Source: a virus (Duplodnaviria; Heunggongvirae; Uroviricota; Caudoviricetes). Taken from it: a DNA stretch of 40,392 nt. The stretch covers positions 1 through 40,392 of IMG/VR virus record IMGVR_UViG_2617271049_000009. The stretch is one strand, 5' to 3'. The notes under the pieces were generated by a model. The model saw only the letters and a program-made list of their open reading frames with translations, ran no database searches and had not been told where the DNA came from. Of the stretch, positions 1,225 through 39,024 are shown one piece after another. The translations under genes were made by a program, and so were the position numbers. Every line of letters starts with the position of its first letter. Position 1 is the stretch's first letter.

Positions 1225-1352
1225 ATCATGATTGGACGGTGCAGAACAACACCAATAAAAACAGGAAGTTAGCAGTCTCAGCAGGACACCGACCAGACGG
1301 TGAGGAGACAAAAAAGGATACGCAAAGGAGCCGCGGCTCCCAAGTGACATGA

Positions 1353-1383
1353 AAGCCCGCTGATGCGGGCTTTTTCGTTTTTA
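1353..1383 (+). terminator. Rho-independent terminator-like hairpin downstream of the ssrA-like fragment
   Basis: AGCCCGC-TGAT-GCGGGCT stem-loop followed by TTTTTCGTTTTT. Confidence 0.5.
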
Positions 1384-1768
1384 TTACCTGCGGCAACACG
1401 CTATCCCTCTTCGTGTTATGGGATGGAATTCCTTTTTACCTTCATTGGTACTTTCGGATACCAGATAACACCATTACCTATTTGACCAATGGCAGCGAAG
1501 CTGGTTTAAATAACCTCTCTAGCAAACAAGTACAACTAAGTTAAGTGGCCAAAAAAATCGCAATAAAACGTGCAATTACATTAACTAAGTAGGACGTTTT
1601 TAACACAAAAACATCGATTAAAAAACGCACTGTGACAAACACTGAAAAAACAAGCATCACACACATTTTTTATTCATGTTTATCAATATGTTAAAACATA
1701 ACCTTACTAATCTTGAATTCATCATCCGCTAATGTAGTTATATTATAAATAGCGCAGTGTGACACTCA

Positions 1769-3277
1769 ATGAAACCATCCATAGAACAACTTCTACATAT
1801 CTACGGGCCGATGTCCTCATCTGCCTTAAGAGAAAAACTGATAGCCAATGGCCTAACAGAAGTTAACGCCAGACAGCGAATCTCCCGCGTTGGAGGTGAT
1901 GTTCAACGTTTTACTCATTTTTCTTTGCCCAAAAATGAAGCATTTCTCTATCTGACAAAGGACTATAACTCTCGTCGATATTGGATTGCATTGCTTGAAA
2001 GTCATGTAAATGCAAGAACAGTCTATGCTCACACCTTTTTCGCTTTCCACCCTTATCAAGGGGCGATCCCGACATATCTTTTTAGCAAGGTTTCAGGGAG
2101 TCCGGACAAACTGAAGGGACACATTGCGTCAAGCCGTCTTGAAGCGCAATTGCTTAAAGGTTCAGTTCTGCGTAGGGAAGTTGATGTCGTTTTGGGGGAT
2201 TGTCTTGTTACTTACATAAATAATATTAACGGGGTAACGGATACCCAACATGTCCGAAACCAATTGCTGGTTGAAGATATTCTCATTAAAGGTGTAGCTG
2301 ACTGGATTAGACACAATGGCCTTGGCAGCTTTAATAAGGTCCAAGTCCGTAACTCTCAGAATATGCCTTCATTTAGCCATCACCATTGGGACATATGTGC
2401 TCCGTCATATATTATGCCTTTAGCAACAGTACAAAAAGGTGAAATGAGTAATGGCTTCATTGTTGCAGATGTCATATACAATGATTTAGATAGCAAAAGC
2501 ATCCAAACCTATCTCACGAAAGTACAGCGATGCAGAAATATGCGAAATACTCGCCCGTTTCTAGCTATGCTGATTGCAGAACGTTTTGATCCAGAAGCCT
2601 TTCGCCTTGCGAAACAAGCTGGTGTAATGGCTACAACAGTATCTAACCTACTTGGTCAAGACATTTCAGCACTACTGTCCAGTTTATTAAATACTCTTAA
2701 TCGTGCCGGTGCCATTGCGGCAGCAAACCCAGAAAAAATCAACGAACTATTTAAAGGACTTACGAGGATTGAAGGCGCCGCAATCAATATAAGAGGCGTA
2801 ATGTTTGAAATGTTAGTTGGTCACATCGTACTGAAAACCCAAAATGTCAGCACTGTTGACTTGAATAAACAAATCAGTACCGAGGCAGGTAAGGCTGAAA
2901 TAGATGTGATTGGTTTTAGAGGCGAAGCAGAAATTAAGTGCTACGAATGTAAAGGCTATGAAGTTAAGCGACTAATTTCAGTCGAAATGATCGAAAAGTG
3001 GCTCGAACGAGTTCAACGCATCAGAAAATTCTACAGTCAGATTCATGTGTACCGTGACCGAAAAATGACTTTTTCATTCTGGACCTCATCAGATTTTGAA
3101 CCTGAAGCACTTGAGCTGCTGCTTCATCAGAAGCAAAGAAATACAAAAATATCATTAGACTGGAAAAATGGACGTGACATTCTTTCCATTGTTAAGGAAG
3201 ACAATCTGAAATCAATTGCAGATGTTCTTCAGGAACATTATCTTCGACACCCACTGGCTCCTGATGCAGATATGTAA
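1769..3277 (+). CDS. hypothetical 502-aa protein; predicted N-terminal winged-helix-like region and C-terminal PD-(D/E)xK-like nuclease motif; candidate defence or restriction-type cargo gene
   Basis: Long uninterrupted ORF with ATG start, convergent with the invertase gene; C-terminal segment AEIDVIGFRGEAEIKCYECKGYE fits the hhhD-x(n)-(E/D)xK pattern; lower GC than phage core genes; sits where e14 carries mcrA. Confidence 0.7.
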   Translation: MKPSIEQLLHIYGPMSSSALREKLIANGLTEVNARQRISRVGGDVQRFTHFSLPKNEAFLYLTKDYNSRRYWIALLESHVNARTVYAHTFFAFHPYQGAIPTYLFSKVSGSPDKLKGHIASSRLEAQLLKGSVLRREVDVVLGDCLVTYINNINGVTDTQHVRNQLLVEDILIKGVADWIRHNGLGSFNKVQVRNSQNMPSFSHHHWDICAPSYIMPLATVQKGEMSNGFIVADVIYNDLDSKSIQTYLTKVQRCRNMRNTRPFLAMLIAERFDPEAFRLAKQAGVMATTVSNLLGQDISALLSSLLNTLNRAGAIAAANPEKINELFKGLTRIEGAAINIRGVMFEMLVGHIVLKTQNVSTVDLNKQISTEAGKAEIDVIGFRGEAEIKCYECKGYEVKRLISVEMIEKWLERVQRIRKFYSQIHVYRDRKMTFSFWTSSDFEPEALELLLHQKQRNTKISLDWKNGRDILSIVKEDNLKSIADVLQEHYLRHPLAPDADM

Positions 3278-3505
3278 TGTGGATAAGCCTAAGGTTTATT
3301 TAGCTGCCTTTGATGCTGTCTATTACCGAATTGTGATGGTCTGCCCAGTACAAAAATATCATTCTGGGCGAATTGATTTAGAGGGTTCACCGGCTCTAAG
3401 AGGCCGATATGTGGCTAGTGTCTGAGTTCCCAACAGCTCGACAGTTTGGGCTGTAAAGTTGTGCTGTCTGCCAGCATCAATCTTTACCGGTGGCCTGCAT
3501 CATGT

Positions 3506-4060
3506 CTAATCCCTGCCTACAGGAAATTTTCGGTATAGTGTTGACACTCCTACATCATAAATTAATGCTACGCGCTGACGCGTTTCTCCTGCAGCGATTA
3601 GTCTCCCTGCCTGCGCCCACTGCTCATCTGTTAGTTTTGGCTTACGTCCACCAATTCGTCCCTGTGCGCGAGCAGCTTCCAGTCCAGCTTTTGTTCGTTC
3701 AACAATCAGTTCACGCTCCATTTCAGCCAGGGCACCCATCACATGAAAGAAAAAGCGCCCCATTGGGGTACTAGTATCAATTGAATCCGTCAGACTACGA
3801 AAGTTGATGCCTCGTTCGCGCAACTCCTCAACCAGAATGACCAGATGCCGCATACTACGCCCCAGCCGATCCAGCTTCCAGACAACCAGAGTGTCACCTG
3901 CCGATAATGTCCTGAGCAGTTTTTTCAGTCCAGGCCTTTCGGACTTTGTACCGCTTATCTTGTCTTCAAAAATCAGCTCGCATCCTGCACAGTTCAGCGC
4001 ATTACGTTGTAGATCTGTGTTCTGGTCATTTGTTGACACACGTACATAGCCAATAAGCAT
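3506..4060 (-). CDS. pin: site-specific DNA invertase, serine recombinase of the Pin/Gin/Hin/Cin family (184 aa from MLIGYVRVSTNDQ)
   Basis: N-terminus MLIGYVRVSTNDQ with catalytic-serine context, resolvase-type domain and C-terminal HTH (YDVGVSTLYRKFP); adjacent to inverted repeats inside a tail-fibre gene. Confidence 0.9.
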   Translation of the reverse strand: MLIGYVRVSTNDQNTDLQRNALNCAGCELIFEDKISGTKSERPGLKKLLRTLSAGDTLVVWKLDRLGRSMRHLVILVEELRERGINFRSLTDSIDTSTPMGRFFFHVMGALAEMERELIVERTKAGLEAARAQGRIGGRKPKLTDEQWAQAGRLIAAGETRQRVALIYDVGVSTLYRKFPVGRD

Positions 4061-31982: not shown

Positions 31983-32530
31983 GCGTTAGTTTCTCCACAG
32001 TCACGACACGCCACGGCGCCCGGAGCTGCACACTCGCGGGCGTCACTACTTTCTGAAACGCAAAAGATTTTGTAGACCAGTGCTGCATGCTCCTGCAGCT
32101 TCGAAATTGAGAGGTACAGCTCATCGTTAATTGCTGTCTTCTCATGCGGTTCCACTACACCATCTTCAATTGCTGAACGAATCTGTTTTGAATAACTGCC
32201 GATCTGTTCAATGACCTCCAGCAGGCGTTGGTTGATATCGGCGTTGTCCACATCCTCGATGTCAGGAAGAGACACAAAGACGCCATTTGCAGACTGCGCC
32301 ACAGCGTCAGCAATGAAGTGAGTTCCACCAGCACGTTGCAAAATCATTGCCCATCCCAGCGGGAAAATCTGATCGCCATCGGCACGAAGGCGGTTAAATA
32401 ATGCGTTCTCTGTTACATCCAGCCAGTCAGCAGCTTCAGCGTACCCCCCCGGCAACGCTGCGATAGTTTTTCTGACAGCTTTCACGTACCACTCAGGCTG
32501 TTTTTCTACTTTCCAGTGATGCTTACCCAC
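31979..32530 (-). CDS. CII-like regulatory protein (183 aa, GTG start)
   Basis: GTG start with strong AGGAGG SD, overlapping the cro stop; position immediately after cro. Confidence 0.55.
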
Positions 32531-32783
32531 GGTTCACCTCCTGTTCCTGTGGTTTAAACCCATTCTGGTTTTGGCTAGATTGAAAACGTGCCGGATAAAG
32601 AATCTGCATTTCGCTGACTTCACCCTTAAAAAAATTGGCTAAACGTTCTGCAAGCTCGATAGATGGAATCTGCTCCAGCCTCTCAATACGACTCAACGTC
32701 GCTGGATTGACTTGAACACCCGCAGCAACATGCTGCAAAGTGAAACCATGCGCCTTACGCACATTTCGTAATGGTGATTGCAT
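32523..32783 (-). CDS. cro: Cro-like HTH repressor (86 aa)
   Basis: XRE-type HTH (FTLQHVAAGVQVNPATLSRIERLEQIPS); divergent from the CI-like gene across an operator-rich spacer. Confidence 0.8.
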   Translation of the reverse strand: MQSPLRNVRKAHGFTLQHVAAGVQVNPATLSRIERLEQIPSIELAERLANFFKGEVSEMQILYPARFQSSQNQNGFKPQEQEVNRG

Positions 32784-32880: not shown

Positions 32881-33573
32881 ATGAACATAGGAAACCGAGT
32901 CAGACAACTTCGCCAAGCGAAGAACATGAAAATCGCCGATCTCGCTGAAGCGATAGGAGTAGATGCGGCGAACATCTCGCGCTTAGAAACGGGTAAGCAA
33001 AAACAATTTACCGAACAAACACTGAGTAATATTGCCAAGAGCTTAGGTGTTGATATTGCTGATCTCTTTACCTCTGCCCACAAAAGTAATACTGTATATA
33101 AAAACAGTAATAATGAGGATGTTGCGCAGGTGAAGGATGTGTTCCGTATTGAAATGCTGGATATCAGTGCCAGTGCGGGAAATGGCCTTATCCAGGGCGG
33201 TGATGTCATTGATGTGATTCATGCCATCGAATACAGAACTGATAATGCTGTATCAATGTTCGGCGGACGACCAGCCAATCACATCAAAGTTATCAACGTT
33301 CGTGGGGACAGTATGTGTCCAACCATTGAGCCAGGAGATCTCATCTTCGTTGATGTCAGCATCAATCAGTTTGATGGTGATGGTATATATGTCTTTGGTT
33401 TTGATGACAAAATATACGTTAAAAGACTTCAAATGATTCCTGACAAACTGCTGGTGATTTCTGATAACCAGATTTACCGTGAATGGGGAATTACTAGCGA
33501 AAACGAACACCGATTCATGGTCTTTGGAAAGGTCTTAATCAGTCAGTCGCAAACCCTTAAGAGACATAATTAA
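32881..33573 (+). CDS. cI: CI-type prophage repressor, XRE HTH plus S24 (LexA-like) peptidase domain (230 aa)
   Basis: N-terminal HTH (MKIADLAEAIGVDAANISRLETGK); C-terminal S24-like region with GDSM (Ser) and VKR (Lys) motifs. Confidence 0.88.
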   Translation: MNIGNRVRQLRQAKNMKIADLAEAIGVDAANISRLETGKQKQFTEQTLSNIAKSLGVDIADLFTSAHKSNTVYKNSNNEDVAQVKDVFRIEMLDISASAGNGLIQGGDVIDVIHAIEYRTDNAVSMFGGRPANHIKVINVRGDSMCPTIEPGDLIFVDVSINQFDGDGIYVFGFDDKIYVKRLQMIPDKLLVISDNQIYREWGITSENEHRFMVFGKVLISQSQTLKRHN

Positions 33574-33592: not shown

Positions 33593-33616
33593 GGCCACCG
33601 AAAGGTGGCTTTTTAT
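33593..33616 (+). terminator. Rho-independent terminator after cI
   Basis: GCCACC-GAAA-GGTGGC hairpin followed by TTTTTATT. Confidence 0.65.
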
Positions 33617-33627
33617 TACCTATAAAT

Positions 33628-33664
33628 TTGCATATCTCGCAAATATCACTTGCATATCTCGCAA
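33628..33664. promoter_or_regulatory. two direct copies of TTGCATATCTCGCAA spaced 22 bp (candidate OL-type operators or promoter elements)
   Basis: Exact 15-mer repeated at 33628..33642 and 33650..33664 immediately after the cI terminator. Confidence 0.45.
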
Positions 33665-33828
33665 TTTAATTTTATCTTTTGTTCCAGACCAACTACAGGA
33701 TTACAACAAAATCTAGTTGCAACACGGTGCATGTGTCGTAAGCAGTCAGTAAATGTCAAAAACGAACAGGCAGGACGCCCACGAAGTAGCCGCCTGGGGC
33801 ATATGAAGTCCAGGATGATTCGTTAGCA

Positions 33829-33855
33829 ACAAAAAAGCGCCCTACAGGACGCTTA
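33829..33855 (-). terminator. terminator-like hairpin for the convergent 144-aa gene, lying upstream of and antisense to the 68-aa gene
   Basis: Minus-strand reading AGCGTCCTGTAGGGCGCTTTTTTG. Confidence 0.4.
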
Positions 33856-33912
33856 GCTCTTTAACAATCTGGTCCCCATCAACAAGTAACTGATAACTTG
33901 AGGAGGTGTGAA

Positions 33913-34119
33913 ATGCACAAAACAGAACCAAAAATCGTCGCGCCCGGATACACAAATGAGGAAATTTACGAGTGGATGGCAAAGAAGCTGGCAGCTATAA
34001 ACCAGCTTCGTGAAGTGCTGTCTTATCGACAGGAAACAATAGACTCCTTAAAAAAACTGGATCAGGAAATCACGGTTTTATCACAGGATGCTACTTTAGA
34101 TATTGTGCAGACAAATTAG
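33913..34119 (+). CDS. small hypothetical protein (68 aa), first ORF downstream of cI
   Basis: ATG with GGAGG SD; AT-rich; 3' end overlaps the convergent 144-aa gene by 29 bp. Confidence 0.5.
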   Translation: MHKTEPKIVAPGYTNEEIYEWMAKKLAAINQLREVLSYRQETIDSLKKLDQEITVLSQDATLDIVQTN

Positions 34120-34525
34120 GATCCCATTCATTTTCGTCAAAATCATCAAAGTGATGAATTTGTGATCTCCAGTCACGATAATCTAAAAATTTCTGGGCGG
34201 TTACGCTTATTTTATCAAGTGTGAGTTCATCCTGAATTGAAAGAAGAAGTTCATCAAATTTCATCTCATTAATCTGTTTTGGCATCCAGTGATGCTTCAT
34301 CAGAATAAGGTGAACCAGAGCCTTTTTCCCATTCAACTGATTATAGGGAGTGCCGAATTTCTTCCGGTGCTCATGTAAGACAAGGTCCAGAAGAGTAAGT
34401 AATGTTGCTCTTGATTCAACTTTGCTTATTTCGACTGATGACACTACCCCACTGATTTCAATGCCCCGATACTTTCCAACATTTTCACAGTGGGATTTGT
34501 ACAGCGTATAGATATTACCGGACAT
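34091..34525 (-). CDS. hypothetical protein (144 aa), oriented against the early leftward operon; candidate lysogen-expressed cargo
   Basis: ATG with AAGGAAAAG SD; AT-rich; convergent with the 68-aa gene; direct repeats immediately upstream of its start. Confidence 0.6.
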   Translation of the reverse strand: MSGNIYTLYKSHCENVGKYRGIEISGVVSSVEISKVESRATLLTLLDLVLHEHRKKFGTPYNQLNGKKALVHLILMKHHWMPKQINEMKFDELLLSIQDELTLDKISVTAQKFLDYRDWRSQIHHFDDFDENEWDPNLSAQYLK

Positions 34526-34540
34526 TTCTTTTCCTTTTGC

Positions 34541-34592
34541 GTTGTTGGGGATAACCAGATTAACCGAATCCTTGTTGTTGGGGAATAACCAG
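34541..34592. repeat. two direct repeats GTTGTTGGGG(A)ATAACCAG spaced 33 bp, 16 bp upstream of the 144-aa gene start
   Basis: Read directly; near-identical 18/19-mers. Confidence 0.6.
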
Positions 34593-34812
34593 GTCCACCT
34601 CGCCTGATGTGGCTAAAAGCAGGCACATAACAGCTAAGTATTTTTAACCAGAGAGAATCCTTAGCGTTGTGGTGAATGCGGCTCAGCGCACGCGGGTTAA
34701 GGTTGAGGCTGACAGTCGACCTTCTGTGGATACCCACCCGTCTGGTGTGCAACCTTCGCCAGGCACCGGGAGGCACCCGGCACCACAACTTTATGCTGTG
34801 TGTAGTCCTGGA

Positions 34813-34945
34813 GGTACCAGTTTGTACCCTTGCTTCCGGCTGGTACCGTCCTTTTTACAAAACAGAGAAGAGCATCACCGGACGACGGGCTCATAACCCA
34901 ATCCATCCGGGCGGCTGCCACCGCAGGTGTTCTTCTCTGTTTTGT
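34813..34945. other. GC-rich non-coding region with nested inverted repeats: 8-bp stem GGTACCAG/CTGGTACC and a perfect 15-bp inverted repeat ACAAAACAGAGAAGA / TCTTCTCTGTTTTGT separated by 59 nt; candidate structured RNA or recombination/regulatory site
   Basis: Inverted repeats read directly; no plausible ORF (only Arg-rich junk frames); GC content higher than both flanking genes. Confidence 0.4.
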
Positions 34946-38948: not shown

Positions 38949-39024
38949 TGGTGCCGATAATAGGAGTCGAACCTACGACCTTCGCATTACGAATGCGCTG
39001 CTCTACCAACTGAGCTATATCGGC
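38949..39024 (-). tRNA. thrW: tRNA-Thr (anticodon CGT), phage attachment site
   Basis: Reverse complement reads GCCGATATAGCTCAGTTGGTAGAGCAGCGCATTCGTAATGCGAAGGTCGTAGGTTCGACTCCTATTATCGGCACCA, a 76-nt cloverleaf with CGT anticodon and encoded CCA. Confidence 0.9.

Follow-up and report, generated by a model that had tools for sequence, protein, structure and literature searches.

A mobile cassette of two convergent, 3'-overlapping genes in lambdoid prophages

Results

Two convergent genes overlap at their 3' ends near a prophage repressor gene

The DNA analysed here is a stretch of 40,392 nt from a tailed phage (IMG/VR record IMGVR_UViG_2617271049_000009; this whole stretch is called the window), and the subject of this study is a pair of small genes that lies close to its cI-type repressor gene. 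The window belongs to the SfV/SfIV type of lambdoid prophages, and across the pair region it shares 99% identity with Shigella phage SfIV and many prophages of E. coli. The pair consists of a plus-strand gene for a 68-aa protein (the small gene) and a minus-strand gene for a 144-aa protein (the large gene). Basically, it is made up of the following elements:

33900-33906, plus strand: Shine-Dalgarno (SD) sequence GAGGAGG of the small gene, 6 nt before its ATG
33913-34119, plus strand: small gene, 68 aa, ATG at 33913, stop codon ending at 34119; phrog_1744
34091-34119, both strands: 3'-3' overlap of the two open reading frames (ORFs), 29 bp
34091-34525, minus strand: large gene, 144 aa; ECs1072 family, NF033230, phrog_5286
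about 34532-34536, minus strand: SD sequence AAGGA of the large gene

A previous inspection of the letters and their ORFs (the sequence-only reading) had described a convergent pair with a 29-bp overlap and a strong SD sequence on the small gene, and these coordinates were confirmed. The two genes had also been called AT-rich. Indeed, the GC content drops to 0.345-0.43 across the pair vs 0.45-0.56 in the flanks.

Both genes are real and under purifying selection. Comparison of the large gene with diverged relatives yielded ratios of non-synonymous to synonymous substitution rates (dN/dS) of 0.24 and 0.11; in a third comparison dS was saturated, and the corresponding proportions were pN/pS = 0.32/0.77. 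For the part of the small gene outside the overlap, dN/dS was 0.26 and 0.18. Of the 84 loci that carry the cassette, 83 have both ORFs intact. The cassette is present in 410 of 5,426 complete E. coli genomes (about 7.6%), where the Prokaryotic Genome Annotation Pipeline (PGAP) annotates both genes.

Two short sequences of the small ORF differ among its variants:

34050-34056, plus strand: run of seven A residues, frameshift site of small-ORF variants
34117-34126, both strands: near-palindrome TAGGATCCCA; on the minus strand W134-D135-P136 of the large protein, on the plus strand TAG, the stop codon of the small ORF

In relatives, TGGGATCCCA is a palindrome that encodes W-D-P on both strands, and both proteins read it. 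The window has TAG in place of TGG on the plus strand, so that the small protein ends at 68 aa. The variant P0020 (103 aa, 25 contigs) has TGG and reads through with W-D-P. Frameshifts at the A run were found in the variants P0050 (13 contigs), P0054 and P0061 and in an E. albertii locus (L005); they may be sequencing errors, decay or phase variation. When the C-terminal variants of the small ORF were checked for absence of the large gene, one turned out to be an insertion sequence (IS) insertion with the large gene present and one a contig end. In none of the loci was the small gene seen without at least remnants of the large one.

The pair is conserved as a unit in Enterobacterales phages

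For comparison, 62 diverged loci were collected (L004-L006, L009 and L090-L147). With a hidden Markov model (HMM) of the small protein, 48 of them (L005, L006, L009 and 45 more) were seen to have a convergent ORF that overlaps the large gene at its 3' end. The overlaps with this first partner family amount to 44-113 nt, and to 191-203 nt in one clade. The same convergent position is occupied in 13 other loci by a different helical partner (109-206 aa, starting MNVTTE), which overlaps the large gene by 185-272 nt. The two partner families have no detectable relation (hhalign probability 1.4%). A spacer between the genes is never present: with the window included, the overlaps range from 29 to 272 nt. 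The sequence-only reading had named conservation of just one of the two ORFs as evidence that would speak against it. The opposite was observed, as a convergent partner overlapping the 3' end is conserved together with the large gene in 61 of the 62 diverged loci.

The pair is retained even where protein identity has fallen to about 30%. In almost all loci, the genes on both flanks of the large gene have the opposite orientation, which is also that of its partner. Further, the pairwise identities of the large and small proteins are closely correlated (Spearman 0.91, n = 666 pairs).

Two genomic slots could be identified. The first lies beside the S24-type repressor gene and the early leftward promoter PL (the window, L127, L138 and L142), and the second reaches from the antiterminator gene Q to the holin genes (L095 and L091). 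Other neighbours are putative lysis-like genes in L009 and a RecE-family exonuclease gene in L004. From these comparisons, the pair is seen to move as a unit between the two identified slots.

The borders of the first slot were derived from BLAST boundaries against SfV, PhiR29_1 and 80 IMG/VR loci:

33758-33824, plus strand: conserved PL-leader block, left junction of the variable slot
34636-34858, plus strand: STnc100/PasD-like small RNA (sRNA), right flank of the slot; Rfam RF02076, 38.4 bits (gathering score 47), E = 2e-6

The PL-leader block is common to phages of different immunity. SfV has 33758-33824 and 34595 onward in common with the window, and PhiR29_1 33758-33872 and 34541 onward; between these parts, both phages have different cargo. 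The left junction of the 80 IMG/VR loci lies within 33753-33763, and the immunity region of the window is found in only 17 of them. Several immunity types occur next to one and the same cassette. On the right, the sRNA match ends in a terminator hairpin and is overlain by a PGAP "frameshifted hypothetical protein", a call that is probably spurious. STnc100 and PasD have been described in a 2026 preprint as prophage sRNAs of common origin.

Presence or absence between fixed junctions and a deviating composition, as expected of a "moron", were both found. With respect to own expression signals, there are terminator hairpins and a conserved leader element, and a scan for consensus promoters detected none. 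Besides E. coli, the cassette occurs in the Shigella serotype-converting phage SfIV and in Salmonella, Serratia, Xenorhabdus, Erwinia and Limnobaculum. Judged by its distribution and junctions, the pair forms a mobile accessory cassette of two genes that is carried by temperate phages of Enterobacterales.

In SfV (L002, U82619), an unannotated 81-aa ORF (3309-3554, minus strand) lies behind the common leader element. It converges on the annotated orf33 (3095-3391, plus strand) with an overlap of 83 nt, and the two proteins are unrelated to those of the window. By arrangement, the SfV pair is of the same design as the window pair, built from unrelated proteins. What is annotated as a "terminator" in SfV (3542-3574) has the position of the leader hairpin.

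The pair lies downstream of the left operator and promoter

The sequence-only reading had placed the pair immediately downstream of cI, in the slot of lambda rex or P22 sieB. The features between cI and the pair, and further landmarks of the prophage, are the following:

32523-32783, minus strand: cro-like gene
32881-33573, plus strand: cI-type repressor gene, helix-turn-helix (HTH) and S24 peptidase domains (Pfam Peptidase_S24 6e-19, HTH_3 1e-11)
33593-33610, plus strand: intrinsic terminator of cI, GGCCACCGAAAGGTGGCT then TTTTT
33628-33642 and 33650-33664, plus strand: two copies of the exact 15-bp repeat TTGCATATCTCGCAA, read as left operators (OL)
33650-33655 and 33673-33678, plus strand: putative PL, -35 TTGCAT, N17, -10 TATCTT; hexamers read by eye
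38949-39024, minus strand: tRNA-Thr(CGU), Rfam at gathering thresholds; near the integrase end of the prophage

Related copies of TTGCATATCTCGCAA are also found in the interval between cI and cro. We read the repeats as OL, with a putative PL that would fire rightward on the plus strand; its hexamers were not picked up by the consensus promoter scan. Since the cI terminator and the operators intervene, the pair is located downstream of OL/PL and not between cI and OL. To the right of OL/PL all genes (yfdP, yfdQ, yfdR, yfdS/T-like, xis and int) are on the plus strand. On this map the pair sits within the early leftward (PL) operon, and the earlier statement that the large gene runs against this operon was borne out. 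The pair does not occupy the rex slot, and its position is that of sieB on the lambda and P22 maps.

The tRNA-Thr was the sole Rfam match in the window at gathering thresholds. Its position is consistent with a prophage integrated at thrW, a known integration site of Shigella serotype-converting phages. In the SfIV genome paper these phages are described as being without recognisable N, cII and cIII, and ORF35/36, which correspond to the pair, are listed as unique with no clear function.

A further cargo position exists between cI and PL in another prophage (L148), where a counter-oriented gene for a 296-aa protein (1345-2235, minus strand) with a faint BRCT match abuts the 3' end of cI. This prophage also has the small ORF.

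Terminators, a boxA and a common leader surround the two genes

Signals that may control the pair were searched on both strands:

33854-33835, minus strand: terminator-like hairpin, AAGCGTCCTGTAGGGCGCTT then TTTTTT, 59 nt upstream of the small-gene start
33856-33867, plus strand: rrn-type boxA GCTCTTTAACAA, single exact match in the window, in the PL leader and directly after the preceding hairpin
33984-34009, minus strand: strong hairpin inside the small ORF, GAAGCUGG...CCAGCUUC then UUUGCC; folding free energy (dG) -15.6, z = -4.1
34194-34209, plus strand: weak terminator-like hairpin, antisense of the large gene; dG -6.6, z = -1.2, weak evidence
34526-34624, minus strand: leader of the large gene, with SD AAGGA, two direct repeats and a core element
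34541-34558 and 34574-34592, minus strand: leader direct repeats CTGGTTAT(T)CCCCAACAAC
34596-34624, minus strand: leader core element GCCTG-N-CCAC-N-CAGGC-N-GTGG, about 30 nt, nested inverted repeats

The hairpin at 33835-33854 is predicted to be the distal terminator of the large gene, serving counter-oriented cargo. Terminator-like sites in the scanned region numbered 8, vs 2.9 expected, and the folding energy of this hairpin was not beyond that of shuffled sequences (z = -0.18). Its stem recurs in the 66%-identical locus L006 as AAGCGTCC-ATT-GGGCGCTT-TTTT and is also kept in L005. PhiR29_1 has the same hairpin directly 3' of a different minus-strand cargo gene, which assigns this terminator to the counter-oriented-cargo side of the slot. 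It may in addition belong to an antitermination site together with the boxA. The sequence GCTCTTTAACAA is identical to the rrn boxA consensus. Exact copies occupy the corresponding position in L006 and 8 of the loci L137-L147, which are otherwise at most 66% identical. As the boxA is conserved in phages without recognisable N, a Nus-dependent, rrn-like antitermination of the early leftward operon is suggested.

The hairpin at 33984-34009 could be a proximal terminator of the large gene. Many relatives have a hairpin with a T run in the sense of the large gene about 40 nt past its stop codon, inside the small ORF; their terminator sequence AGCCGTTCTTCAAGAGCGGCT-TTTT encodes EKAALEERL on the opposite strand. 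With the distal terminator lying beyond the small gene, large-gene transcripts that read through would be antisense to it. This part of the sequence-only reading stands. Its further statement that the transcript is fully antisense is not assured, because the hairpin at 33984-34009 may end many large-gene transcripts earlier.

In the direction of the operon, there is no plus-strand terminator in the window between the PL/boxA leader and the small gene. Most loci of the Q slot have an operon-sense terminator about 100 nt upstream of the large-gene start, and L095 has two strong operon-sense terminators between Q and the small gene.

The leader element and the SD sequence of the large gene also precede other counter-oriented cargo, namely the cargo of PhiR29_1, second copies in L142-L146 and the 81-aa ORF of SfV. 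The copy in L002 (SfV) is located at about 3590-3622, and the second copies in L142-L146, ahead of unrelated ORFs, at about 3707; in L142 and L146 the second copy abuts the boxA. The core element could be a portable promoter, operator or 5' untranslated region. Its stems (GCCTG/CAGGC and CCAC/GTGG, including a pseudoknot reading) are almost invariant across the loci and so give no covariation signal. Folding of the whole leader was no better than that of shuffled sequences (z = +1.2), and the consensus promoter scan found no promoter for either gene. The long leader was also seen ahead of other cargo in PhiR29_1 and L146; two GGA motifs are present in it, one of them in the SD sequence.

The proteins belong to families without an assigned function

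The large protein matches NF033230, "ECs1072 family phage-associated protein", with 157.8 bits (cutoff 70) over residues 4-144 (model positions 2-142 of 142), a name that carries no function. It is also a full-length HMM match to phrog_5286 (E = 1.5e-90), and the small protein to phrog_1744 (E = 3.7e-34); PHROGs lists both as "unknown function". An exhaustive HMMER search collected 76 representatives of the large family, all single-domain proteins of about 145-155 aa. Named members of the ECs1072 family are from Escherichia, Salmonella, Serratia, Xenorhabdus, Erwinia and Limnobaculum. L50, R54 (with H53), L64, G66, A69, H72, W80 and W134 (with E133 and P136) are conserved throughout the family. 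A protein of 163 aa (P0004) combines about 108 N-terminal residues of the ECs1072 family with a C-terminal tail-fibre-assembly domain (PF02413), which is evidence of a rearrangement in a defective prophage.

AlphaFold2 modelled the large protein as all-helical, with a predicted local distance difference test (pLDDT) score of 78.5 and a predicted template modelling score of 0.78. For the small protein (pLDDT 86), residues 1-14 are disordered and residues 15-67 form a single helix. Its N-terminus carries the family motif MxKxEPxxxxPG..E(E/Q)(I/L)xEW, which in relatives reads M..EPYFFNPG..EQLEDW. Both proteins are hydrophilic (grand average of hydropathy, GRAVY, about -0.5), mildly acidic and without hydrophobic segments; the small protein has a GRAVY of -0.5 and an isoelectric point of about 5. 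By composition, the two proteins are soluble, unlike Rex, SieB or type I toxins, and neither of them is a membrane protein or a hydrophobic toxin.

Searches of Pfam, NCBIfam, PADLOC and PHROGs with both proteins, 48 family members and the partner variants returned only family names without function. PADLOC-DB v2.0.0 (systems up to 2023) had no match to the window proteins, and relatives gave chance-level hits only (E 0.001 or weaker). A Foldseek search of the large protein against PDB and BFVD gave no significant fold match (E > 0.7). Profile searches of PDB sequences found nothing for the large family and designed coiled coils only for the small one. Thus, the structure predictions and remote-homology searches that the sequence-only reading had proposed provided models of both proteins and no relative of known function. 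A literature search on ECs1072, the RefSeq accessions and the PHROG identifiers led to one microarray table entry only: the namesake ECs1072 has a growth-phase-dependent microarray signal in uninduced O157 Sakai.

Several candidate identities were rejected. For a HEPN ribonuclease, the Foldseek probability was about 0.1 with a TM-score below 0.3, and the R120..H125 residues (Rx4-6H) are not conserved in the family. Weak fold matches to HTH and DnaA-IV domains recurred and were dismissed as noise. A type II toxin-antitoxin system does not fit genes that converge instead of being co-directional, and NCBIfam and Pfam contained no toxin-antitoxin family match. For a type I system the antisense overlap would be possible, but the small protein is acidic and hydrophilic and not a hydrophobic toxin.

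A model for the expression of the pair and its alternatives

We favour, with a probability of roughly 0.37, a tentative model in which the large gene would be expressed in the lysogen and silenced by lytic antisense transcription, and in which the small protein would neutralise the large one. In this model, the large gene, with its own conserved leader and directed against the lytic operon, could be expressed while the prophage is repressed. The small gene, which would be read from the cI-controlled PL via the boxA leader, would be made in the lytic phase only. It should be repressed by cI, since it follows PL and the boxA leader without a plus-strand terminator. In relatives of the Q slot, its position behind Q-dependent terminators would likewise restrict expression to lytic growth; in L095 the small gene should be Q-dependent because two terminators separate it from Q. 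In Stx phages, stx is Q-dependent in this way. As the genes converge without a spacer, lytic transcription would cross the entire large gene together with its leader in antisense direction, and could act by transcriptional interference and antisense pairing. Most likely, the single-helix small protein would bind and neutralise the large protein. The net effect would be a lysogen-phase activity that is automatically off during the lytic growth of its own prophage. This activity would most plausibly be interference with other phages, by analogy to sieB, rex, BstA and other cargo of these slots, and such an effect is our leading guess for the function of the cargo.

The two ORFs, their purifying selection and co-inheritance, the constant orientation and overlap and the expression signals are shown by the sequences; timing of expression, antagonism between the products and biological function are the parts of the model that we infer. 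The disordered, conserved N-terminus followed by a single long helix is as expected of a binding partner or inhibitor. Several observations weigh against the model. The scan found no consensus sigma-70 promoter for the large gene, so we infer its lysogenic expression from the orientation and the common leader only. The above scans found no similarity to known defence, exclusion or toxin families. No partner is visible for the homologue in L004 (56% identity); E. albertii L005 has a frameshift in the small ORF and an intact large gene, and in L149 the small ORF is interrupted by an IS element with the large gene still present. The partner is therefore not strictly essential wherever the large gene is present, which argues against a required antidote.

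These same three loci would be expected if the roles were reversed, with the small protein as a lytic, host-directed effector of the kil type and the large protein as the antidote of the lysogen against leaky expression, harmless on its own and hence able to persist with a broken partner or none. The evidence from architecture (convergence, orientation and co-divergence) would apply here as well. We regard this as quite unlikely, however: the hydrophilic small protein is unlike known small toxins, neither protein matches a toxin-antitoxin family, and toxin-antitoxin operons are normally co-directional and autoregulated. In addition, use of the cassette from both early (PL) and late (Q-dependent) positions would be odd for a timed host takeover.

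Alternatively, the two could be functionally unrelated accessory genes, with overlap and co-inheritance resulting from compaction and tight linkage. Recombination can indeed separate them: in L005 the small ORF is near-identical to the window over its first 47 codons (dS 0.15), and the large gene has diverged (dS 0.73). The solitary large gene in L004 and the widely varying overlap length and C-terminal tail of the small protein point in the same direction. We consider it improbable nonetheless, given that the two genes stayed together down to a protein identity of about 30% and in no fewer than two phage slots, that the arrangement persists even with a partner of a different family, that an analogous convergent, overlapping and unrelated pair occupies the same slot in SfV, and that a small gene without remains of the large gene was found nowhere.

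The dispensability of the cassette, which is swapped between otherwise near-identical phages, makes it distinctly improbable that the large protein is a DNA-binding regulator of the lysogen and the small protein its anti-regulator, in a circuit for lysis-lysogeny or induction and not for defence. No HTH Pfam match was obtained among the 48 family members. Such a regulator would be compatible with the conserved stretch G..AL.H.IF.KT.W....I..LSL of the large family, and the nested inverted repeats in the leader would be a possible operator. Finally, it is very unlikely that the small ORF is untranslated and that only its RNA or the act of transcription matters, as antisense or leader for the large gene: although the partner ORF of relatives is largely antisense to the large gene and two unrelated partner "proteins" occur in the same place, the SD sequence is strong and ideally spaced, dN/dS is 0.18-0.26 in the non-overlapping part, the N-terminal peptide motif is conserved, the helical model is confident and the ORF is intact in all but one of the loci.

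Discussion

The preferred model, lysogenic expression of the large gene with lytic silencing, has its closest counterpart in BstA/aba. BstA is a prophage-encoded abortive-infection protein that is constitutive in lysogens and has a cognate self-immunity (Owen et al. 2021, PMC8585504). The co-encoded, allele-specific DNA element aba keeps BstA from blocking the lytic growth of its own phage (PMC8585504). The logical problem and the kind of solution would be the same for the pair, and direct repeats are present in the 5' region of the gene in both systems. The resemblance of the leader repeats to the terminal direct repeats of aba, or to CsrA sites, is speculative. In contrast to aba, a short DNA element, the candidate antidote here is a convergent protein gene combined with antisense transcription, and no BstA-type model of PADLOC matched either window protein.

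The sieB gene encodes a membrane protein of about 190 aa and, as an in-frame internal product, Esc. Superinfection exclusion by sieB/esc in P22 and lambda was reportedly described by Ranade and Poteete in 1993. Like the pair, sieB is an accessory gene of the PL operon downstream of OL/PL, so that the location is comparable; its expression in the lysogen is driven by a promoter of its own, and the phage has an escape function. The pair, however, comprises two separate soluble proteins on opposite strands, and no homology was found. A SieB homologue was rejected, as Pfam, PHROG and NCBIfam gave no SieB match and hydrophobic segments are lacking.

The lambda genes rexA and rexB lie between cI and OL and are co-transcribed with cI; RexB is a polytopic membrane protein. 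They are likewise an accessory pair of the immunity region that is thought to be active in the lysogen, but the pair of the window is beyond OL/PL, convergent and soluble. Identity with Rex was rejected in view of the intervening cI terminator and OL, the opposite strand of the large gene, the hydrophilic proteins and the absence of a Pfam or PADLOC match.

In the convergent-promoter switches of phages 186 and P2 and in the Listeria excludon, convergent transcripts overlap and the stronger unit silences the other. The pair is similar in that two units stand face to face and a long transcript would be the mRNA of one gene and the antisense of the other. The structural prerequisites of an excludon are present, with no spacer and with terminators beyond the partner gene on both sides. 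The switches of 186 and P2 differ in that their overlap is 5' and at the lysis-lysogeny promoters, and that of the pair is 3'-3' and in dispensable cargo.

Morons of lambdoid phages are said to have been defined by Juhala et al. in 2000 with HK97 and HK022. The pair resembles them in being inserted between conserved genes, present or absent in close relatives, of lower GC content and equipped with its own terminator. Classical morons are single genes, whereas this one is a fixed convergent pair with one member on the transcript of the surrounding operon.

Both families were already catalogued without a function, and the pair itself was noted in SfIV. The convergent-overlap architecture, the mobility between slots, the recurrence with an unrelated partner and the common leader appear to be new, as no description was found in the literature searched. 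Both proteins are still annotated as "hypothetical". The recurrence of the design with an unrelated second partner family and in the unrelated SfV pair gives rise to a wider reading, which we hold to be doubtful. The pair would be a two-component prophage system in which a lysogen effector of a new fold, acting in exclusion or abortive infection, has its antidote supplied by 3'-overlapping convergent lytic transcription; counter-oriented cargo with an operon-sense partner and a portable leader could then be a general lambdoid way of packaging self-safe functions.

The 0.7-kb cassette is naturally present or absent in near-identical phages (SfIV vs SfV), which makes these ideas easy to test. 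If they are true, the large protein would add a new protein fold to prophage-encoded lysogen functions. Counter-oriented cargo with an operon-sense partner over its 3' end and a common leader would provide a genetic rule to search for further systems. The pair would then stand beside BstA/aba as a second, mechanistically different example of prophage self-immunity.

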